Source of the DNA: a virus | UHGV virus genome: UHGV-0209657 | Strand: one strand, 5' to 3' | Length of the DNA stretch: 55,055 nt | Notes under the pieces: model-generated | Databases searched by the model: none | Seen by the model: only the letters and a program-made list of their open reading frames with translations | Told to the model about the DNA's origin: nothing | Shown here: positions 4,808-53,240 of the stretch, piece after piece | Numbering within the stretch: position 1 is the stretch's first letter | How the letters are laid out: every line of letters begins with the position of its first letter | Translations under genes and position numbers: made by a program

Positions 4808-4836
4808 TTTGACTCGCAATATACGCCCCGTAAAAC
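4808..4836 (-). promoter_or_regulatory. candidate leftward early promoter (TTGACT - 17 nt - TATATT)
   Basis: Read on minus strand: -35 at 4831-4836, -10 at 4808-4813, between cI and the leftward operon. Confidence 0.4.
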
Positions 4837-4935
4837 ATCGAGTCAATCCATTTTGTATACTTTTTTAAAATATTTTATATGCTATTGATATTTAAACAAT
4901 AAATAACGTTTTCTGTTTACGTTTTGGCGTTTTCC

Positions 4936-7465: not shown

Positions 7466-7618
7466 CCTACCTACCAGTCTGTAAACCGAAAATTAGCCAC
7501 CTGATAGCGTCTCTGGCGCAATAAGACACTGCAACCTGTGCAAACGGGTTACGCGGTGGGATTTTTGCGTTGTAGCGCGTCTGAGGCGTTATATAGAAAA
7601 TTAATAAAGGAGGTATAT

Positions 7619-8674
7619 GTGATTGCTACTTATCATATGAAACTCAATTGTAAGGACACGCAATTACTGTCTGTTAATAATCTGGTTTCTGAACTTGAAA
7701 TTGATAGACTTAAATCATTTGTTAAATACTCTGATCTTTACGGATTTGAGGAATACAAGGATTTTATTGTTGATGGTGATGATGTGTATATCACACCCAT
7801 AACGTTTATTAGATTCGTTACACCTGGTAAATATAGACATTATGAATATAATGAAAAATGGGTTAAGCCAGTTATTGAATCTTGTGGATTAGTTGACTTG
7901 CAAGATATCTTTAATAAATATTCAAATAACACCAAAAAAGATAGTCCTTATGCTTATAATTATATTTTATGGTGTAACAATTATGTTGAAACGAGTGATA
8001 CTCCTGGGCGATGTTCTGTGTATGTGTCAAAAGAAGATGCTGAAAAGTACAAAAAATGGTTGTTCGTCACTCGCGGAGTATCAATAGAAAAGCTATGGGT
8101 AAGGTTGTTCCATTCAAGCGATATTGCAGATCCAGATGCGTTTTTAACTGAACACCTCAATAATGATGAGTTTACCATTGATTTAAATATTGAATATTTT
8201 ATAGTTAAAACAAATTATGGGTATGAAAGATATATTAGCGATAAGATAGCAGAAAAGTATCATGCATGGGGTGAAAATAAAGGTCTTAATAATAATTTTG
8301 AATGCGGGAATTATAACGACATAGAAAACTTTATTGAATTAAAAAGCGATAAAAATGTAATTGAAGAAATAAAAAAGGAGTACGACTCGAAATTATCAGA
8401 AATGAGAGATAATTGTAAAAATATGATTAGGAAGCGTTATGAACATGCTGGCTTAACTATGTATGAAAAACTAAAAGGAGTTAAATTAATAAGGCAATAT
8501 CCTGTTGATGTTGCTGGCAATAAGTATTTTATTGATGGCTACGATCCTGTGAATAACGTTGCTGTAGAAATTGATGAGTCACATCACAAACGGCAAGTAA
8601 AAAGCGATGCGATAAGACAAAAACGCATTGAAGATTATTTGGGGTGCAAGTTTTTCCGTTGTGCTATATCCTAA
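7619..8674 (+). CDS. AT-rich hypothetical protein with C-terminal DUF559/Vsr-like endonuclease-fold domain
   Basis: GTG start 5 nt after AAGGAGG; markedly lower GC than flanks; C-terminus YFIDGYD..VAVEIDESHH..D..R..LGCKFFR matches recalled DUF559 pattern. Confidence 0.5.
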   Translation: MIATYHMKLNCKDTQLLSVNNLVSELEIDRLKSFVKYSDLYGFEEYKDFIVDGDDVYITPITFIRFVTPGKYRHYEYNEKWVKPVIESCGLVDLQDIFNKYSNNTKKDSPYAYNYILWCNNYVETSDTPGRCSVYVSKEDAEKYKKWLFVTRGVSIEKLWVRLFHSSDIADPDAFLTEHLNNDEFTIDLNIEYFIVKTNYGYERYISDKIAEKYHAWGENKGLNNNFECGNYNDIENFIELKSDKNVIEEIKKEYDSKLSEMRDNCKNMIRKRYEHAGLTMYEKLKGVKLIRQYPVDVAGNKYFIDGYDPVNNVAVEIDESHHKRQVKSDAIRQKRIEDYLGCKFFRCAIS

Positions 8675-8710
8675 TGTATACAAATTGTAAACCGCAATGT
8701 ATACGATTAG
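8671..8710. repeat. palindromic element at 3' end of AT-rich gene
   Basis: CTAATGTATAC (8671-8681) and inverted GTATACGATTAG (8699-8710); AATGTATAC direct repeat. Confidence 0.4.
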
Positions 8711-8851
8711 TTATTCATTAAGTGGTTATTTCAATTTGCATAAGTTGTTGATTAACCCTACTGGCATTTTTTGACACCGTGAAATCCATGTTAATAAAAA
8801 TTAGTTATTTATGAATAAATACTCATTCCGCGAACCGGAGGTAATAACGTT

Positions 8852-9970
8852 ATGTCACAAAGAAAGATCAGCGATGAGGAACTGATCGCCGAGTACAACA
8901 AGGGGAAAACTTACAAGCAAATAGCAGAAGAATATGGAATGGCAAAACGCAACGTCGAACGCCTGGGCGCACGGTTGGCGAAACGCGGTTTAATATCCAC
9001 GCGTCGCGCGCCGGGCTTTGGCGTCAATGGTGAGTCATTGCTCGTCGATAAGGATGGCAATGTGATTATGCGCTGGATTAAAACAGCCCGTGATCGCGAT
9101 GAAATGGAAAGGCTAATGCAAGCGGCTTGCGATGCTTTCACGGAAGACATGCCACGCGCGGAGGCCGTGCCAGTGCCGGAAATTGATTTCCAAAAAAGCC
9201 TGGCCCTTTATCCGGTATTCGATCTGCATATCGGGGCGCTTGCTCATAAAGCTGAATGCGGTGAGAGCTACGACACCGGGATCGCTGAACGCGTGCTAAA
9301 TGATTTCTTTGACTACGCGGTAGGCGCAGCGCCGATGTCTGAAAAAGCTGTATTGCTTCTCGGTGGGGATGTTCTTCACACTGATGGGCTGTTGCCAGTG
9401 ACGCCATCAAGCAATCACGTACTTGATTGCGATTCACGCTACGCAAAACTTGTTTATGTGGCGATCCGGTCAGTCCGCCGTGCTGTAGGAAAGATGTTGT
9501 TAAACCACAAAGAAATCGAAATCCAGGTATTATCAGGTAATCACGATCAGTCGGGGATGATTTGGCTACGTGCTGCGCTGGCGGCTTTTTACGAAGATGA
9601 ACCGCGCGTAACGGTTGACGTGTCACCTGCTATCGTACACCACACACAGTACGGCAAAACATTCCTTGCTTACCACCACGGACACACCATCAAAAAACCA
9701 GAAAATTTGTTGTCTGCCTGCGTCTCTGACTGGCGGGAAGATTTCGGTAAGTCTGCGGCGGTTTATGCTCATTGCGGGCACTGGCACCACCAACGGTTGA
9801 TTGAATCATCGTTAGGCGTTGTTGAGTATCACGGCACGTTAGCGGGCAAAGACGCTTATTCAACGAATGGCGGCTGGCGGTCGCGGCGTCTGGCGGCGGT
9901 AATAATTTACAGTCCTGATCACGGGGAAATCGGGCGCTTTGTTTATTACCCTGAATATTCCATTTTGTAA
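8852..9970 (+). CDS. HTH-domain protein fused to calcineurin-like metallophosphoesterase (GNHD type)
   Basis: N-terminal HTH; motifs DLHIG, GGDVLHTD, GNHD, GHWHH in canonical order; ATG at 8852 with GGAGG RBS. Confidence 0.55.
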   Translation: MSQRKISDEELIAEYNKGKTYKQIAEEYGMAKRNVERLGARLAKRGLISTRRAPGFGVNGESLLVDKDGNVIMRWIKTARDRDEMERLMQAACDAFTEDMPRAEAVPVPEIDFQKSLALYPVFDLHIGALAHKAECGESYDTGIAERVLNDFFDYAVGAAPMSEKAVLLLGGDVLHTDGLLPVTPSSNHVLDCDSRYAKLVYVAIRSVRRAVGKMLLNHKEIEIQVLSGNHDQSGMIWLRAALAAFYEDEPRVTVDVSPAIVHHTQYGKTFLAYHHGHTIKKPENLLSACVSDWREDFGKSAAVYAHCGHWHHQRLIESSLGVVEYHGTLAGKDAYSTNGGWRSRRLAAVIIYSPDHGEIGRFVYYPEYSIL

Positions 9971-17535: not shown

Positions 17536-17732
17536 CGCAATAACTCCGTTTTGTTAATTAACTAAACAATTCTACCATTTTGTGATCTGTGTTACACTTT
17601 GGGCTTATACATAATGTATTTTTTGATCTATATCAACATACGAAATGATAGCTTCTGCGGTGATTTGCTCATCGGATGGGTGGATCATCACGAACAACAA
17701 ATGACAGTAAAACAAACAGTAAGGTGAATACA

Positions 17733-17978
17733 ATGAAAAAACTAATTGTTGCTTGCATCTTATCAGCTCTGTCTTTTGGTGCTTTTGCTTCTGTAAATTC
17801 GACAGATAAGAGTGATGCTGGCACTGCTCAATATGGTGATACTGGCCTTGATAACCAACGTTCGAGTTATTTCAATACTGACTCATGGAAAGAAAAACAA
17901 CTACAAGGTAAAATTATTGACAGTGAATGTAATTTACCTATCCATTTTTCTGGTGTAAATGATGGGTGTAAAAAATAA
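17733..17978 (+). CDS. small secreted protein with signal peptide (opposite-strand moron)
   Basis: MKKLIVACILSALSFGAFA signal peptide; AAGGTGA RBS; between J and tail fibre on opposite strand. Confidence 0.5.
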   Translation: MKKLIVACILSALSFGAFASVNSTDKSDAGTAQYGDTGLDNQRSSYFNTDSWKEKQLQGKIIDSECNLPIHFSGVNDGCKK

Positions 17979-24913: not shown

Positions 24914-25042
24914 TTTCTCACCTTGTCATTCTGTGATCTGCGTCACGCTAAATCATACCAAAATGGATTGATCGCGGTTTTTACAATATGTATATTTTAC
25001 TCAAACGGAAGCATAGTTAACAAAATGGCGCGGAGGTGCGTT

Positions 25043-25231
25043 ATGACTGAAAAGCTATGGAAGTTGACGGTATTCATGACAGACGGTAGGGAAAAGGTTA
25101 TCGCCCTGTATGACGACGAGGGTGAAGCATTGGTTGACGCGCTTTTACTTGCTGAGGATGACCGCCTTTTGGGATACCAGATCGAACCTGTCAAATATGA
25201 GGCTAACAAAAATGAAAAAATACAGTCTTGA
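25043..25231 (+). CDS. hypothetical protein (62 aa), moron cassette gene 1
   Basis: GGAGG RBS; opposite strand to flanking tail genes. Confidence 0.35.
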   Translation: MTEKLWKLTVFMTDGREKVIALYDDEGEALVDALLLAEDDRLLGYQIEPVKYEANKNEKIQS

Positions 25232-25559
25232 TGTGTGGTTAAGTGGTAGCAAGGAGTGTTTCGGATTATTTGATAGCGAAGAAGTAGCCCTGGAAGAAGG
25301 CAGGATTCTTGAATGTAGTTTAGGCCATCCAGTGAAATATGCTGCTAATCCGGTACAGATAGTTGATGAGGTGGAAGATATGAACCCGAAAGATATTAAT
25401 GGTAGCTTCACTGCTTATTATGCAGATTCTATGGACCAGTCTTGCCCTGGTGAAATACACGCAAAAGGTTTCCCGGCTGACGATCCAGAAGCAAAACGCG
25501 AATACGAAAAAGCGGCGAAAGATTTCTGTATCGATAACCTTTCAGCATTCGATAAATAA
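25212..25559 (+). CDS. hypothetical protein (115 aa), moron cassette gene 2
   Basis: ATG overlapping upstream gene end. Confidence 0.35.
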   Translation: MKKYSLDVWLSGSKECFGLFDSEEVALEEGRILECSLGHPVKYAANPVQIVDEVEDMNPKDINGSFTAYYADSMDQSCPGEIHAKGFPADDPEAKREYEKAAKDFCIDNLSAFDK

Positions 25560-25568
25560 GGCGGCAAC

Positions 25569-25817
25569 ATGGGGCGGCGCAATCACGGTGATTATGTGTA
25601 CACGTTGAAACAGGCCGCCCGCCTCATCGGTTATCATGAACACGAATTTATTGATTTGCTGATTGAGCGCGGGATACTGTACCAGGTCTGTTTAACGCTG
25701 TACCCGAAAGCGAAATACCTACATGAAAAGTTATTCATCATCATGACGGATGAAAACCAGGTTAACCATTCATTCGTCACTGATAAGGGCGTTAATTATC
25801 TGCGTGATAACTTATAG
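25569..25817 (+). CDS. hypothetical protein (82 aa), possible HTH, moron cassette gene 3
   Basis: Segment YTLKQAARLIGYHEHEFIDLLIERGIL looks HTH-like. Confidence 0.35.
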   Translation: MGRRNHGDYVYTLKQAARLIGYHEHEFIDLLIERGILYQVCLTLYPKAKYLHEKLFIIMTDENQVNHSFVTDKGVNYLRDNL

Positions 25818-26524: not shown

Positions 26525-26622
26525 AAAACCCCCACAAGTTACATTTTGTATATATCTTTACGCGCTTCTACGCGAAAAATAAGATCATTGTCACAATGAT
26601 TATAGCTAGTTTACAAAATGGA

Positions 26623-26651
26623 TTCACATAGCACGCAACAAGATGTATATA
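26623..26651 (+). promoter_or_regulatory. candidate sigma70 promoter for moron cassette (TTCACA - 17 nt - TATATA)
   Basis: Hexamers with 17-nt spacer about 40 nt upstream of AAGGAGG RBS. Confidence 0.3.
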
Positions 26652-26691: not shown

Positions 26692-26847
26692 ATGAAACGC
26701 TATGTAGTAGTAATGCTAAATAACGCATTCGAACAAGTGGAAATAGCAATCGTTAAGGGTTTCGACGACGCATTCAAATACGGTCAATTCATGATGAATG
26801 CGAAAGAAGATGAATACCGGGACTTCTTCCTGAAGGCACTTAACTAA
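26692..26847 (+). CDS. hypothetical protein (51 aa), moron
   Basis: Strong AAGGAGG RBS; opposite strand within tail operon. Confidence 0.35.
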   Translation: MKRYVVVMLNNAFEQVEIAIVKGFDDAFKYGQFMMNAKEDEYRDFFLKALN

Positions 26848-26864
26848 GGATGATGGGGTGAGTT

Positions 26865-27119
26865 ATGAAACTGGTAGCGATTGACAGAAATCTGAAAGCA
26901 CAGAAAAACGCACAGGACCGGATCATCAAGAAAGGTAAGGAATTACTTAAAGCCTTTCTGAGAAAAGAAGTTTACCCCAAAAAGTTACGCGACGGTTACG
27001 GATACAAAATGGATATCAATCTTGATTGGAGGCTGTTTAGCGAAGATTTGAAGGTTTGGTTAATTGTTGAGCACCATGCCTATAACAAGTTATGTGGCGT
27101 GAAAGGCACTCATAAGTGA
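26865..27119 (+). CDS. hypothetical basic protein (84 aa), moron
   Basis: GGGTGAG RBS; followed by terminator. Confidence 0.35.
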   Translation: MKLVAIDRNLKAQKNAQDRIIKKGKELLKAFLRKEVYPKKLRDGYGYKMDINLDWRLFSEDLKVWLIVEHHAYNKLCGVKGTHK

Positions 27120-27174: not shown

Positions 27175-27212
27175 AAATAACCCCGGCATTGCACCGGGGT
27201 TTAGTTTATTTG
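27175..27212. terminator. bidirectional hairpin terminator
   Basis: CCCCGG-cattgca-CCGGGG flanked by A-rich and T-rich runs. Confidence 0.55.
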
Positions 27213-29548
27213 CGGCGAGGTTGCAACATTCCGCCTGGTCTTTGAGATTCCCTTGTTATCATTTTCATGGCTACACGTTCCATTGTTAATTCAAGTCTGC
27301 GGCTGTCTTCGTCGCTGAATCCGTTCGTGGTCTGAATGCTGATACTGACAGGCATACTAATACCGCCACCGCCGCCAATATCACGGCCCGGAATAACTCT
27401 GCCGTTCTCGCCAGGGATCATATATTGATTGCCGTTAGATGTCTGGAATAGCTCCGGCCTGTTGTGTTCCCCTACGCGGTACATATTACCACCAATGACG
27501 CTACCACCATTAAAGCGACCGCCGCCGAAAATTGACGTAGCCAGCGACATGATCGCAGTGAGCGCCGCCGAACCAGCCGCCGCCCAGCTACCGCCAGTTG
27601 ACGCCGCAGTTGCCGCCGCTGCTGGGGCCGCCGCCGCAGCAATGCTTCCCTGAGCTGCTACCGCGCTTGCTGTTGTACTTGTTTGCGTGGCCTTGCTTTG
27701 TGTCTCCATCATGATCTGATCTGCTATCCAGTTTGCAGCTATGTCTGAGAGTCTGTTACCGATATTGCCGAGTATATTGCTTCCTAAGTTAGCAAAAACA
27801 TCACTCAATGATTGAGTGCCGTTTAACAGGCCAACAAGTGCATTGCTCATACCACCTTTAAGGCCATTAACGCAATCACCGATAAGGCTGTTTGTGTCGC
27901 TTTGCGCCTGCCATTGCTCCCACTTCAGATCGCGGATCTGTTGCTCATAGGCTAACAGTTCCTGTTTCTGTTGCGCTTCCGTCACGCCCAGGTCGATAAG
28001 CATTTGCTTACGGACGGCCCATTCATTTTGAACCTGCTGAATAGGGTCTACTTCGCCCTTTAGCTGATCCATCGGGCTTACTATTTGCTCCCATTTGTCG
28101 CGCAATTCCTCTACCGGAATTTGTGCTAATTCTTCCTTTAGTTCCTTACCTATCCCTTTTTGCGCGGCGCGGTACTCAAGGAGAGTGATTTTACCCTGGG
28201 CGAATGCAGCATCAATGGCCTTGCCGCTCTCTAACGCTTTGCGCATAGCGGCGGCGTCTTTGTTGTACTGGTCAGAAACGCTTATACCTTTATCGCCAAG
28301 ACGATCAGCTTCAGATTTCTTCTCTTTTTTCTGTTTTTTCGGTTTGTCTACTGGCTTGTCGAATCCGGTAATCGCTCCGTCATTGGCGGCATTCTGTTCA
28401 TTTTTCCTTGCTTCTTCTGTAGCCTGGATTGCTGCGGTCAGATCATCCTGTAGTTGCATGACCTTGCCAACGGTCTTACCGTATTTCTTCTCGTAGTTGC
28501 TGTTATATTCGTCGGTTTGCTCTCCTACGACCTCCTTCATCCATTTGTAGGCATCCATTAGTGCCTTGATTGGCGTCACCATTGCGATGATCTTCTCGGC
28601 TACCTCGCCAGCCTTGATTCTGACATCTTCAAACATGTCGATGAATTCGCCACCAGCCGTCTTCAGGGTGTTAAAGCAGGTTTTAGCGAAATCAGCGCCT
28701 TCACCTAAAGCCTTAACACCTTTCGTTACAAGATCGATACCAGCAACAACCGTATCGGATACACCGAAAAGATCATCCAATTGCTCAATAAGTCCCATAA
28801 CCTCGACTTTAAGCTCATTCAGGGCCATGCCGGATGTGCGCGGCAACTGCGCAAACTTCTCGTTTGTTTCCTGCGTAGCCGCCTGGATTGCGTTAACCAT
28901 CCTTTCTGCCGTGATCTTACCGTCCAGCATTTCGGCGCGGAATTGGCCCATTGATAACCCCATCTGGCGTGCCATTGTCTGTACGATGGTCGGGGTGTTT
29001 TCTAACAGGCTGTTGAATTCTTCAGCACGCAACACGCCACCGTCGATAGACTGACGGAATTGACGCATTGAGTTTGACATCTGCTCCGCTGACGCGCCGC
29101 CCAACGCCCCCATTTTCTGAATCGTACCTACCAGGTTAAGCAATTGCCCTTCAGTGGCGGACGTGTTCTTCAGTGAGATAGCTAAGCCTTGCCACAGATC
29201 CCCGGTATCCTTCATGCTTTGGCCTGTTTCTTTTGATATTGCTTTCAGGCCATCAAAAACCCGTCCGGCGGACTCCGCATCGCCCGTAAGCATTTTGATT
29301 TTTACGCGAAGCATTTTTGCTTGCTCCGCCATATCCATAAATTGACGCACGGCCTCCGCAGCAATTAGCAAATGGATAACCCTGGTCAGTGCCTTGATGG
29401 ATGTTTTCAGGGTGTTTACCTGGCGGTCAGCCTGTTTTGCGCCGCGCTCTATACGCCCAAAGGCCTGGTCTGCCTGTCGTTGTGCAACGAGAAGTTGACC
29501 AGTTTTCGCATCAACTTCGTAATAAATTGTACCTACACTGGTAGCCAT
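27206..29548 (-). CDS. H: tail tape measure protein
   Basis: 780 aa, coiled-coil/Ala-Gly-rich, upstream of M-L-K-I-J. Confidence 0.85.
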   Translation of the reverse strand: MATSVGTIYYEVDAKTGQLLVAQRQADQAFGRIERGAKQADRQVNTLKTSIKALTRVIHLLIAAEAVRQFMDMAEQAKMLRVKIKMLTGDAESAGRVFDGLKAISKETGQSMKDTGDLWQGLAISLKNTSATEGQLLNLVGTIQKMGALGGASAEQMSNSMRQFRQSIDGGVLRAEEFNSLLENTPTIVQTMARQMGLSMGQFRAEMLDGKITAERMVNAIQAATQETNEKFAQLPRTSGMALNELKVEVMGLIEQLDDLFGVSDTVVAGIDLVTKGVKALGEGADFAKTCFNTLKTAGGEFIDMFEDVRIKAGEVAEKIIAMVTPIKALMDAYKWMKEVVGEQTDEYNSNYEKKYGKTVGKVMQLQDDLTAAIQATEEARKNEQNAANDGAITGFDKPVDKPKKQKKEKKSEADRLGDKGISVSDQYNKDAAAMRKALESGKAIDAAFAQGKITLLEYRAAQKGIGKELKEELAQIPVEELRDKWEQIVSPMDQLKGEVDPIQQVQNEWAVRKQMLIDLGVTEAQQKQELLAYEQQIRDLKWEQWQAQSDTNSLIGDCVNGLKGGMSNALVGLLNGTQSLSDVFANLGSNILGNIGNRLSDIAANWIADQIMMETQSKATQTSTTASAVAAQGSIAAAAAPAAAATAASTGGSWAAAGSAALTAIMSLATSIFGGGRFNGGSVIGGNMYRVGEHNRPELFQTSNGNQYMIPGENGRVIPGRDIGGGGGISMPVSISIQTTNGFSDEDSRRLELTMERVAMKMITRESQRPGGMLQPRRK

Positions 29549-29602
29549 GATTTAACCTCATGCAAAAATGTGATCTGTGTATCTATTTTATACAAAATGG
29601 CT

Positions 29603-29631
29603 TTACTTCAACGACTCCATTTTGTATAAAG
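29603..29631 (+). promoter_or_regulatory. candidate sigma70 promoter for lipoprotein moron (TTTACT - 17 nt - TATAAA)
   Basis: Hexamers with 17-nt spacer; inverted repeat TACAAAATGG/CCATTTTGTA overlaps; CRP-like half-site at 29569. Confidence 0.4.
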
Positions 29632-29675
29632 AAGCCAAAGGGAATGGTCAGTAAATCAAGTTAGCGTGGTGGGTT

Positions 29676-30335
29676 ATGAAACGGTTAGCAAAAGTGGCAA
29701 TGATTGCGGCGGTATTGGGTCTGGTTGGTTGCAATGAGGATAATGAAAAAGCGCCTATAGTGACCACTCAAGAACAACAAGCATTAGCAGAGAAAAATGC
29801 TAAATGGCTTGCAGAACAACAAGCAAAACAAGCCGCATATGAGGCACAGTTAGCAAAAGAAAAAGCTGGTAAACAGTGGCTTGTGGTCGAAAGAAAAGAT
29901 GATATGCAGGACACAAAAAACGTGTTCCTTTTCGTGAAAGCAGAACATTTCAGCGGAAGTCTTGATGCTTTCCCTACACTGAAAGCACGGGATGAAAACA
30001 AACCTGTATTAACAATCGCTTGCCAGGGTAATAAAACAAAAATGTTCGTAGCATGGTCAAACCATGTAACTGACGCTGGGGACACTACTTATATTAACTA
30101 CCGGATCGGCGATCACAAAGCTGTAGCTACTGAATGGAGTCGGTCAACTAACTATAAAGCTCTTGGATTATGGAACGGCAAAAAAGCCATTCCAATGATT
30201 AAAAAACTGGTTAACGAAAAACAATTTATCATTGAAGTAGTGCCGGAAGCTGGCGACATTGAGAAAGCAGTGTTTAACATTGATGGTCTTTATAACCACA
30301 TCGACAAAGTGAAAAACGCTTGCAACTGGAATTAA
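29676..30335 (+). CDS. lipoprotein (signal peptide plus lipobox LVGC)
   Basis: MKRLAKVAMIAAVLGLVGC N-terminus; opposite strand between tape measure and tail chaperone region. Confidence 0.6.
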   Translation: MKRLAKVAMIAAVLGLVGCNEDNEKAPIVTTQEQQALAEKNAKWLAEQQAKQAAYEAQLAKEKAGKQWLVVERKDDMQDTKNVFLFVKAEHFSGSLDAFPTLKARDENKPVLTIACQGNKTKMFVAWSNHVTDAGDTTYINYRIGDHKAVATEWSRSTNYKALGLWNGKKAIPMIKKLVNEKQFIIEVVPEAGDIEKAVFNIDGLYNHIDKVKNACNWN

Positions 30336-30344
30336 GGGTGAAAC

Positions 30345-30665
30345 ATGAAACGCGATGAATGGATGAGAAAATGGGAACATAAACAAGTAGCATATAATCG
30401 CAAGATGAACCGCGAATTTGACTTCGGTGTCGCAGAGCGTGATTGTGGGTATAAAGGAAATCTAAATGGTGCATATGTTCAACATGTTGGCGATAAACAG
30501 TATTATTACATTGTCAACTTCAACCATGTATTGCACGCAGATCTGGTTGTTATTGATGGGAAAACAAAAATAGTAGCGAATAAACGCATTAATAAGAACG
30601 CAGCAATCAATATATTAACAGTGATTCGCACCCAGATGAATGTGCTTTACAAAAAAATAGCATAA
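30345..30665 (+). CDS. hypothetical protein (106 aa), co-transcribed with lipoprotein
   Basis: 9 nt downstream of lipoprotein gene; followed by terminator. Confidence 0.4.
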   Translation: MKRDEWMRKWEHKQVAYNRKMNREFDFGVAERDCGYKGNLNGAYVQHVGDKQYYYIVNFNHVLHADLVVIDGKTKIVANKRINKNAAINILTVIRTQMNVLYKKIA

Positions 30666-30677
30666 GCGAACTTAACA

Positions 30678-30706
30678 AAAACGCCCGGATCTACCGGGCT
30701 TTTTCT
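30678..30706 (+). terminator. rho-independent terminator after moron pair
   Basis: GCCCGG-atcta-CCGGGC followed by TTTTTCTTG. Confidence 0.55.
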
Positions 30707-31368
30707 TGCTCGCGATTTTTCATTCTTTTTAGTATCTCCATAGCACCATTCATTCCATCGTCATAAGCCTTTTTATCCAGCAATACATTTGGGCGTTTTT
30801 GTTTGTTTCTTGCTTCTGGCGGCGTTTTAGCGCGTACAACGGCCCTATATCCGGTCATTGTCATATTCCATGCTTCTGATTCTGATAACCCCAGGTGAGC
30901 TACGGCAGAATAAACGAATTCCAGCACGTTAAAAGTCGGCTTATATTCCCCTTCCCGGATCTCTCCGGCGTCTTCTTCTGGCCCGTCACCGATTAAACCG
31001 TGGTACATGCAATGTTGTGCCAGCGTGATAACGTCACTGGTCGGCATCAGTCCGGGTTTTAGTCGTAACTTGCCGGAAGAAGTTAACCTACATTCACCCA
31101 ATAACGGGGCTATTTCGTCGTCTGAGCAACATTTCAGGATGCGCATTGACGTTTGTACTATCTCACCATAACACCGCGCCATAATGCGATTGCGGAGGCC
31201 TGGATCTGTAGGCAATCGTGATGGGTATTTGCTGCCGTGGATAAGTGCGAAATATTCGACAAGCTCACTATCGTTGCCGATTTTAGCCATCGCAGCAAAG
31301 CAAGGATTAAACTCATAGCGCTTACCGTTCACCACAGCCGCAAATTGTCCTGTACGAACATGGATCAT
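30691..31368 (-). CDS. putative tail assembly chaperone (positional)
   Basis: Between major tail protein and tape measure; ATG at 31366-31368 with AAGGTGA RBS. Confidence 0.35.
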   Translation of the reverse strand: MIHVRTGQFAAVVNGKRYEFNPCFAAMAKIGNDSELVEYFALIHGSKYPSRLPTDPGLRNRIMARCYGEIVQTSMRILKCCSDDEIAPLLGECRLTSSGKLRLKPGLMPTSDVITLAQHCMYHGLIGDGPEEDAGEIREGEYKPTFNVLEFVYSAVAHLGLSESEAWNMTMTGYRAVVRAKTPPEARNKQKRPNVLLDKKAYDDGMNGAMEILKRMKNREQEKAR

Positions 31369-31423
31369 AGTATTCACCTTAAAAGAAAAGGGGCCAAATG
31401 GCCCCGATTGTTAATATTGGCTG

Positions 31424-45960: not shown

Positions 45961-46022
45961 TATATAACAAAATGGCACTACCGAAACAATGCCATTTCGT
46001 AAACATTGTGATACAGATCACA
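45961..46022 (-). promoter_or_regulatory. candidate CRP-dependent class I promoter inside island
   Basis: Perfect TGTGA-N6-TCACA at 46007-46022; -35 TTGTTT (45984-45989) and -10 TATATA (45961-45966) on minus strand; CRP centre about 61 nt from inferred start. Confidence 0.35.
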
Positions 46023-52292: not shown

Positions 52293-52368
52293 AATGCTCT
52301 CTCCTTTTCAGGTGATTTCTACGCATTTCAGCGCTGCCGGATTTTTAAAGAGCATTTCGTTTGCTTGA

Positions 52369-52429
52369 AGTATACAAAATGGATACACCAGAACAAGGTG
52401 AATAGCGCCATTATGTGATCCACATCACG
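52369..52429 (-). promoter_or_regulatory. candidate promoter with CRP-like site upstream of nin genes
   Basis: -10 TATACT (52369-52374), -35 TTGTTC (52391-52396), TGTGA-N6-TCACg at 52414-52429, within nested inverted repeats. Confidence 0.35.
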
Positions 52430-52451
52430 CAATGGCGCCATTTTGTAAATT

Positions 52452-53240
52452 TCAGTCCGGTAAAACGCGGTTAAGCGTAGTGCGATTGATGGCCCGGTCG
52501 TTAGCCAGGAATACAGCACGGGCAAAGCCGCGCGGCGTTAGTGAGCGGATCATCTTAGTGCGTTTCGACTTTCCTCCTAACTTAGCGTGCTGCTTACTGT
52601 CTTCCCATTCATCAGGCATTGGCACAGGCCGGAATAGCGGCTGCTTAAATCCATTCCCGCACCAGATACAAGTTTTCTTCGTGTATGCGTCGCGGGCCGC
52701 TATGTATTCAGGGAAAGCAGGGTGTTTATCGTCTTCCGGCAGGTAGCCACCGTAAGCGCACGGGTTGAAGATAAAATCAGGTTTGCGCCATAACGTTGAC
52801 AGTGCGCCCACCGGATTTTCCACCATCCACGGCACGTTATACATATTCGCCAGTTTTTCTACCAGTTTTGCGTTATACGCCGCCTTTACCTGGAAGGCAG
52901 GATCTTTTTCCCGTTTACCAGCGAACCAGCGAGCGCCTGAAACGGCGAGATCGTCGCACGGCGGAAAGCCCAATATAATGTCAGGTGCTGGATAAGAAGA
53001 CAATTCAGGCGAGAACATTACCAGGAAATGGCTGTCAATCCACACGTTAACGTATTCAATATTAGGATGAATGATTTTAACGCCTTCATAATCGCCGTGA
53101 TTTGCACCGTCATAATTGAAGCAATAGCACTTATATCCCGCTTCCGCCCAATCTTTAACGGCGTACCCGCTGCCGTCGTACAGCGACCACACCACCCAAC
53201 TTCTAAGCCAATTATTTAACCAATGTTTGCCCTTGCTCAT
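52452..53240 (-). CDS. C5-cytosine DNA methyltransferase-like protein (compact)
   Basis: Motif I-like LYDGSG, motif IV-like GFPPC, motif VI-like ENPVG in canonical order; 262 aa. Confidence 0.5.
   Translation of the reverse strand: MSKGKHWLNNWLRSWVVWSLYDGSGYAVKDWAEAGYKCYCFNYDGANHGDYEGVKIIHPNIEYVNVWIDSHFLVMFSPELSSYPAPDIILGFPPCDDLAVSGARWFAGKREKDPAFQVKAAYNAKLVEKLANMYNVPWMVENPVGALSTLWRKPDFIFNPCAYGGYLPEDDKHPAFPEYIAARDAYTKKTCIWCGNGFKQPLFRPVPMPDEWEDSKQHAKLGGKSKRTKMIRSLTPRGFARAVFLANDRAINRTTLNRVLPD

Follow-up and report, generated by a model that had tools for sequence, protein, structure and literature searches.

Phage HK97 carries a moron, which is an extra transcription unit, and its product gp15 is a protein of superinfection exclusion that blocks the entry of DNA in a way that is tied to features of the tail (Cumby et al. 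2012, summarised in PMC3594210). In the mEpimmI phages, Lpp021 and Lpp010 have been shown by experiment to be exclusion lipoproteins (PMC11893012). SDIC4B from Serratia defence islands, for which HHpred gives a VasI-like fold, provides alone a 10- to 200-fold anti-phage protection (bioRxiv 10.1101/2024.01.28.577318). Here, we analyse a cassette of two plus-strand genes in the UHGV virus genome UHGV-0209657, a stretch of 55,055 nucleotides that we refer to as the window. The first gene encodes a lipoprotein with a domain of the VasI/TagO family. We favour, with slightly less than even confidence, the reading that the cassette is a moron with its own transcription and that its lipid-anchored VasI protein most likely excludes incoming phages in the periplasm or at DNA injection.

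Like the cassette, the HK97 moron occupies the slot between the chaperone and tape measure genes of a siphophage tail operon; it has its own promoter and terminator and encodes an envelope protein from a bacterial family (PMC3594210). However, gp15 is a small YebO-like inner-membrane protein and not a VasI lipoprotein, and the two are unrelated in sequence; the cassette in the window also lies on the strand opposite to the tail genes, has two genes and has a function that is only predicted. Lpp021 and Lpp010, as well as the lipoproteins of the Cor/Llp type, are opposite-strand lipoproteins in the tail region of the same phage group, and Lpp021 shares the upstream arrangement of TGTGAT and TATACAAAATG. 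However, Lpp021 and Lpp010 have about 70 residues, are not similar in sequence (E value 5.9), are located downstream of J and track the receptor type (OmpA, LamB), which the TagO-like gene does not. SDIC4B is exported, is found outside type VI secretion system (T6SS) clusters and comes from a two-gene locus where the VasI-like protein is sufficient alone. We read a signal peptide in its sequence, taken from the plasmid table of the preprint; in contrast to the phage lipoprotein this is a type I signal peptide and not a lipobox, and the gene is chromosomal and BrxR-associated, whereas the phage cassette is in a tail module. SDIC4B has no match to Pfam VasI, and homology between it and the lipoprotein was tested and is not detectable by sequence or by profile (hhalign probability 0.1%). 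The TagO/VasI proteins (PF11319, TIGR03360; VCA0118 in V. cholerae, ECs_0222) have a homologous C-terminal beta-sandwich with both cysteines and are exported to the periplasm. Unlike them, the phage gene is outside a T6SS cluster, its product scores under the equivalog cut-off, and a lipobox and a stalk replace the Cys...RLxCYD region.

In the window, two plus-strand open reading frames are found between the tape measure and DUF6246 genes, inside the minus-strand tail operon, as listed here with their flanks:

29676-30335, plus strand: 219-residue lipoprotein with a VasI/TagO domain, an open reading frame annotated as the same gene by RefSeq
29676-29732, plus strand: signal peptide and lipobox, residues 1-19
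29766-29864, plus strand: A/Q/K-rich helix, residues 31-63
29871-30332, plus strand: VasI beta-sandwich, residues about 66-219
30345-30665, plus strand: 106-residue protein, an orphan and independent module, an open reading frame annotated as the same gene by RefSeq
30683-30699, both strands: bidirectional intrinsic terminator at the end of the cassette
27206-29548, minus strand: tape measure protein gene, the left flank (Pfam TMP_3, 1.3e-48; phrog_1538, 6.7e-156)
30691-31377, minus strand: DUF6246 gene, the right flank, in the position of the tail assembly chaperone (Pfam DUF6246, 7.5e-54)

The preliminary description of the window, made from its DNA letters, had placed a two-gene plus-strand unit with its own terminator within the minus-strand tail operon. 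Its coordinates agree with ours, and for E. coli M1/5 both genes are annotated in RefSeq. Also present is the terminator at 30683-30699, a hairpin with a T run on both strands (GCCCGG-ATCTA-CCGGGC, predicted stability -13.1 and -14.6 kcal/mol), which overlaps with the DUF6246 stop codon. A putative chaperone role is assigned to the DUF6246 gene by position alone. An Rfam search of 29300-30900 showed no RNA families.

The same description had reported a 219-residue lipoprotein with an LVGC lipobox. This is borne out: the signal peptide MKRLAKVAMIAAVLGLVG, followed by C, bears the lipobox, and G15, L16, G18 and C19 are invariant in 12 out of 12 close homologues. What had been missed is the VasI/TagO domain. 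Pfam VasI (PF11319) matches residues 55-218 with 60.8 bits against a cut-off of 26.5, covering profile positions 25-184 of 184. For the NCBIfam VasI equivalog TIGR03360 the score is 47.3 bits, below the cut-off of 124.2, and in the PHROG search the sole significant match is phrog_1848, of unknown function. The family-invariant residues of the beta-domain are present (W68, D79, C116, N119, T121, R143, S157, G164, W166, P173, P190, F200, G204, C216 and W218), and among these C116, C216, R143 and W218 are 100% conserved across 129 distant relatives. Typical relatives have a type I signal peptide and then the motif Cys...RLxCYD, found after such a signal peptide in 57 of the 129; the phage lipoprotein lacks the motif and has instead the lipobox and the A/Q/K-rich helix. 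The chromosomal E. coli T6SS-2 TagO (Sakai ECs_0222, next to tssH), which itself matches Pfam VasI with 179 bits, is 33% identical over 113 residues, with both cysteines aligned.

The AlphaFold model of the lipoprotein (predicted local distance difference test, pLDDT, 70.8; predicted template modelling score 0.62) consists of the helix 31-63 and a beta-sandwich. A structure search, which had been proposed earlier for the products of the cassette, was informative for this protein: the closest solved folds are IalB (PDB 3dtd) and the MotY N-terminal domain (PDB 8z5n), with a likeness at the fold level, 7-9% identity and a model of medium confidence. It was not informative for the 106-residue protein, whose low-confidence model has no fold match. 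The BFVD structure search returned uncharacterised phage proteins and nothing else, and the PDB sequence search gave no match for either protein.

The ratio of nonsynonymous to synonymous substitution rates (dN/dS) of the TagO-like gene, in comparison with its 76-78% identical homologues in L033 and L027, is 0.09-0.25 overall and 0.04-0.09 in the helix. Because of these low values the lipoprotein is, by its pattern of substitution, a functional protein under purifying selection, with a conserved stalk of about 33 residues that is constrained in sequence. An exhaustive profile search gave 1878 representatives of the family at E <= 0.001, and since merely five of them score below 1e-30, the phage clade is, by this measure, small and isolated; the nearest representatives belong to a variety of environmental taxa. 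A homologue search by word index, run again with the alignment, returned the same 12 close clusters and no more, and a scan of species-representative genomes showed no relative. Across the homologue searches made, the TagO-like gene was seen in this phage lineage only, and the 5426 complete E. coli genomes included 13 unique strains that carry it.

The source of the window is clear from its matches. The chromosome of E. coli M1/5 (NZ_CP053296.1) is 99.9% identical to positions 29400-30800, and the RefSeq order there is tape measure protein, "type VI secretion system-associated protein TagO", hypothetical protein and DUF6246 family protein. Because the window partially matches the phages mEp021, mEp013, mEp044 and MagusPhagus, it is by sequence an mEp021-like (mEpimmI) prophage of this strain. 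The mEpimmI group consists of Nus-dependent, non-lambdoid temperate coliphages, and M1/5 is among the strains in the paper that describes it (PMC11893012).

Among these phages the slot is never empty, and its cargo differs between collinear relatives:

TagO-like gene and 106-residue gene: the window and nine other loci
TagO-like gene and a 124-residue BamE-like lipoprotein: ten loci
TagO-like gene alone: L025 and L027
160-residue periplasmic protein, 106-residue protein and 124-residue protein: L029-L032
59-residue and 124-residue proteins: mEp013
conserved open reading frame of about 27 residues and a 137/138-residue periplasmic protein: mEp021, MagusPhagus and MFDS1019527

The G+C content is 39.2% in the cassette, 50.4% in the tape measure gene and 47.0% in the DUF6246 gene, and at third codon positions it is 0.36 against 0.45-0.53 in the flanks. 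L026, a more distant relative with 53% identity, has its DUF6246 and tape measure genes side by side, and there the VasI lipoprotein gene, which diverges from both, has an upstream region unlike that of the window. Because of the deviant G+C, the differing cargo in collinear phages and the abutting flanks in L026, the region is, on comparative grounds, a moron at a cargo-exchange hot spot. The earlier view of a separate cassette inside the tail operon agrees with the low G+C and the swapped cargo, which also mark it as an accessory unit exchanged horizontally. The longer products of the first gene in the slot start with MKRLAK or MKRLIK and are all exported. This shared start implies a conserved left boundary, which begins at the tape measure gene start and extends over the repeat and the ribosome-binding site to the first codons of the signal peptide, and because the first-gene cargoes are all exported with the MKRLAK start, a role directed at the envelope is indicated for the whole slot.

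Two further elements of the slot were observed. The 124-residue lipoprotein, with the BamE-like motif GMTCEQV, is a recurrent alternative module (L002 3947-4321, L006 1801-2175, L029 5345-5719), and it scores under the Pfam thresholds for BamE and DUF7738. In L004 (2839-2925), L005, L003, L011, L012, L021 and L022 an unannotated open reading frame of 27-28 codons (MKNVNYRPNEHERYADFIEEMLKALKK) separates the cargo gene from the inverted repeat; it is absent from the window, and the inspected differences between its copies are synonymous.

The 106-residue protein, with a pI of 9.8, is basic and lacks a signal peptide. Its homologues form three clusters, and searches against families, defence systems and solved structures gave no match. 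It had been presented as the partner of the lipoprotein. However, the TagO-like gene is also found with the 124-residue BamE-like lipoprotein or alone, the 106-residue gene is also found behind the unrelated 160-residue protein, and because each of the two genes occurs without the other, the 106-residue gene does not serve as a dedicated partner. Its synonymous divergence between the window and L033 is 0.067 while that of the adjoining TagO-like gene is about 1.5 (saturated), which confirms an independent exchange and indicates that this exchange was recent. Against L033 (2449-2769) it has 20 nonsynonymous and 4 synonymous changes and a dN/dS of 1.24, against L029 a dN/dS of 0.25; the protein is possibly evolving fast, with counts of changes too low for a firm conclusion.

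Upstream of the cassette, an inverted repeat and a candidate promoter overlap:

29566-29571, plus strand: TGTGAT element upstream of the repeat, invariant among relatives (columns T50-T55 of the intergenic alignment)
29587-29600: left arm of the repeat, containing the 12-mer TATACAAAATGG (29589-29600), centred at about -42.5 of the plus-strand promoter
29602-29630, plus strand: candidate sigma-70 promoter TTTACT-17-TATAAA, hexamers at 29602-29607 and 29625-29630, with 9 of 12 consensus matches
29617-29630: right arm of the repeat (CCATTTTGTATAAA), overlapping the spacer and the -10 of the plus-strand promoter

The repeat, TTTATACAAAATGG-N16-CCATTTTGTATAAA, had been reported as perfect, and perfect it is (100% complementary); its arms, at 14 nt, are longer than had been given, and it is an element of the phage backbone. 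The stretch TCTATTTTATACAAAATG...TTTTGTATA is the best-conserved intergenic stretch in six phages with different cargo, and because the repeat is conserved alongside unrelated cargo, both it and the promoter belong, on this comparison, to the conserved backbone and not to the cargo. The 12-mer CCATTTTGTAWA (T[AT]TACAAAATGG on the other strand) is found 14 times in the window with up to one mismatch (positions 743, 4848, 5691, 9960, 25017, 26541, 26610, 27001, 29589, 29617, 37591, 45992, 52371 and 52438), against an expectation of 1.0 +/- 1.06 and a maximum of 5 in 100 shuffles. In mEp021 there are also 14 copies, 0.77 being expected, mostly at equivalent positions. Since it is the best-conserved intergenic stretch and its 12-mer recurs 14 times, the repeat is, statistically, no chance feature.

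Most copies are intergenic: within the repressor-cro region, on the downstream side of the repressor gene, ahead of dnaB, as inverted pairs in two early intergenic regions, and ahead of the opposite-strand cassettes in the tail region. Four promoters, in the window and in mEp021 alike, have the layout 12-mer, 1 nt, -35, 17 nt and -10:

4820-4860, minus strand: early-left operon beside the repressor gene; TATACAAAATGG, A, TTGACT, 17, TATATT
about 24962-25010, plus strand: antirepressor cassette; ATACCAAAATGG, A, TTGATC, 17, TATATT
26610-26651, plus strand: ParE-like cassette; TTTACAAAATGG, A, TTCACA, 17, TATATA
29589-29630, plus strand: TagO-like cassette; TATACAAAATGG, C, TTTACT, 17, TATAAA

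This four-way layout indirectly supports the candidate promoter of the cassette. The cassette had been credited with its own promoter, and the hexamers are present in the common layout, but a promoter scanner skips TTTACT-17-TATAAA, as its -10 lacks the final T, where the relatives vary (TATAAA, TATAAG, TATAGA), and the promoter belongs to the backbone. Because the 12-mer is the sole element of at least 9 nt, A/T runs aside, that is common to the repressor-cro and early-left regions, it may be bound by a protein of the immunity region. It may also be the operator of the CI-type repressor; against this, it is not palindromic, its paired copies are 16, 55 and 57 nt apart, and it is located upstream of the -35 in four promoters.

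Other interpretations of the repeat were rejected. As a terminator or structured RNA, it folds to -14.3 kcal/mol on both strands but has no T run after it. The arms vary at their inner ends only and without compensation, which favours a DNA element over an RNA hairpin, and conservation with unrelated cargo speaks against a cargo-specific operator. The combination TGTGATCT(G/A)TGT plus the 12-mer is also found upstream of the cor-position gene of the window and of mEp021 gp81 (Lpp021). CRP-like sites TGTGAT-N4-ATCACA number 7 where 2.7 are expected, a borderline enrichment that 3 out of 100 shuffles reach.

Several further features of the window were noticed. Two early intergenic regions contain nested palindromes: at 52366-52454 a pair of 12-mers surrounds a 19-nt inverted repeat containing TGTGATCCACATCACG (52401-52442), and at 45967-46022 a pair with N16 spacing adjoins a perfect TGTGATACAGATCACA (46007-46022). 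A second opposite-strand cassette, at 26692-27119 on the plus strand between the tape measure and a minor tail gene, has a 51-residue open reading frame and an 84-residue ParE-like toxin (Pfam ParE_like, 9e-12); it looks like a toxin-antitoxin moron and is kept in relatives. A third in the tail operon, at 24923-25817 on the plus strand, carries a KilAC/antirepressor-domain gene with the palindrome TGTGATCTGCGTCACG ahead of it. Outside the tail region, at 7538-9970 on the plus strand, open reading frames of 378 and 372 residues are inserted between the replication-initiator gene and dnaB, where mEp021 has other genes. The former has weak matches to DUF559 and a PvuRts1I-like endonuclease, and the pair may be defence or homing cargo.

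The mechanism that we favour would then be as follows. TTTACT-17-TATAAA would drive a separate transcription of the cassette, in the direction opposite to the late tail transcript. That transcript probably gets past the bidirectional terminator through antitermination of the Q type, as a putative Q-like late regulator is encoded in mEp021. An Asn at position +2 predicts sorting of a lipoprotein to the outer membrane. Here the +2 residue is Asn, and the lipoprotein would be anchored on the periplasmic side of a membrane, which is probably the outer one. The stalk would hold the VasI domain in the periplasm, where the domain would bind an envelope component or a trans-envelope machine. Most likely, this would exclude incoming phages at the periplasmic or DNA-injection step and so protect the lysogen; if the promoter is early, it is the infected cell that would be protected. 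Exclusion at the envelope is favoured by the slot itself, by the fact that nearly all of its cargo is exported, and by the precedent of HK97 gp15 in the identical slot. Further precedents in its favour are the lipoproteins with which phages of this group exclude others and SDIC4B with its reported activity against phages. Superinfection exclusion is on these analogies a reasonable proposal.

The preliminary description had suggested exclusion by blocking a receptor. Specific support for this was not found: the TagO-like gene accompanies at least three or four different C-termini of J. A 95-100% identical gene occurs with the J C-terminus of the window in eight strains, whereas STEC306-308, MLI107 and GF66.2 combine it with C-termini that are clearly different, and in one strain the J type of the window is present and the TagO-like gene absent. 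Because a near-identical gene rides with several receptor-binding ends of J, receptor-specific self-exclusion appears unlikely. Also against receptor blocking, the position of the exclusion lipoproteins downstream of J holds another exported protein in the window, where an Rz1-type spanin is the sole other lipoprotein. This exported protein (MKKLIVACILSALSFGAFA..., 82 residues, 17730-17978, plus strand) is encoded directly 3' of the J-like gene and on the opposite strand to it, in the cor/Lpp position, and is without family match.

Several further points weigh against exclusion in general. Similarity to tested exclusion proteins is not detectable, with Lpp021 at an E value of 5.9 and Cor and Llp not compared directly; the hhalign probability with SDIC4B is 0.1% with both the 12- and the 130-sequence profiles, and PADLOC gave 0 matches for the cassette genes. 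The cassette may be repressed in lysogens because of the 12-mer common to the early-left promoter and the repressor-cro region, and the final T, otherwise conserved, is missing from its putative -10. Across the homologues the +2 residue is N, R, D, G or E, so that the membrane sorting is predicted only tentatively. Finally, a 2026 review lists the function of the VasI/TagO family as unknown (PMC13584744).

The first alternative is a T6SS-directed function, in which the phage domain acts on the type VI secretion apparatus, either by competing with or replacing the chromosomal T6SS-2 TagO and altering the firing of the lysogen, or by blunting incoming attack in the periplasm. We regard this as unlikely. 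The domain is a true VasI/TagO domain, the RefSeq name of the phage protein is TagO, and the E. coli T6SS-2 TagO (ECs_0222 beside tssH; PMC10562709) aligns at 33% with both cysteines matched. However, the gene is in a phage tail module, and every locus examined has tail-gene neighbours and no T6SS cluster. The score is 47 bits against the TIGR03360 equivalog cut-off of 124, and the N-terminal Cys...RLxCYD (57 of 129 relatives) gives way to the lipobox and helix. The family is also large (1878 representatives at E <= 0.001), its nearest members are from diverse environmental taxa, and VasI-like proteins are documented outside T6SS clusters (bioRxiv 10.1101/2024.01.28.577318). As the role of TagO is unknown (PMC13584744), a mechanism cannot be specified.

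A broader proposal, which we consider improbable, is that a temperate phage captured the periplasmic VasI/TagO module of the T6SS and re-tethered it to a membrane via a lipid anchor and a sequence-constrained helical stalk so that it interferes with a trans-envelope machine, with the cassette in a regulon, so far undescribed, of the 12-mer TWTACAAAATGG. If this is true and the target is the injection conduit of a rival phage, the lipoprotein would define a new periplasmic exclusion family and open, for the first time, a way to the function of the VasI fold. If the target is the T6SS membrane complex, the prophage would control, or protect from, contact-dependent killing. The TWTACAAAATGG regulon would comprise the early-left promoter and the promoters of three tail-region accessory cassettes.

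A function in the lytic cycle, with the cassette in an early gene set that is repressed in the lysogen and active in infection or induction, has only a slim chance in our view. The protein would block superinfection of the infected cell, stop the loss of progeny on debris, or condition the envelope for the tail or for lysis. The Llp protein of phage T5 prevents progeny loss on cell debris. The layout is the same as at the early-left and antirepressor promoters, both necessarily silent in a stable lysogen, the 12-mer is the sole 9-mer or longer common to the repressor-cro and early-left regions (A/T runs aside), and the right arm of the repeat is over the -10, a repressing position. However, in the four family promoters the 12-mer is upstream of the -35, a position that is activating or UP-element-like and not repressing. 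It is also not palindromic, unlike typical CI-type operators, and the opposite orientation, separate terminator and low G+C suit a classic moron expressed in the lysogen. A similarly slim chance is left for host fitness or virulence unconnected with phages or the T6SS, with a lipoprotein that changes adhesion or invasion, stress tolerance, or the organisation of outer membrane and peptidoglycan, for which the weakly Lpp-like stalk (NCBIfam alanine-zipper lipoprotein, E 0.097), the mostly human origin of the carrier strains and the BamE-like lipoprotein among the sister cargo speak, but IalB has 9% identity and itself an unclear molecular role, matches to virulence families are absent, and the gene is rare (13 unique strains, 5426 complete genomes) and was seen in this phage lineage only.

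If the gene does nothing measurable, the cassette would be an ordinary moron with an over-interpreted database name. The slot between chaperone and tape measure is, through its morons, a classic site of prophage-encoded host protection, and here it carries a member of the VasI/TagO family, whose role in the T6SS is still unknown. A phage-borne, lipid-anchored VasI domain on a constrained stalk would be a one-gene system in E. coli K-12, read out by plating, for learning what the VasI fold binds. The exchange at the hot spot, anchored in the MKRLAK start of the signal peptide, would provide varied exported proteins for the envelope of the lysogen, and the recurring 12-mer suggests that several accessory cassettes are controlled together in these phages, a group common in the human gut.

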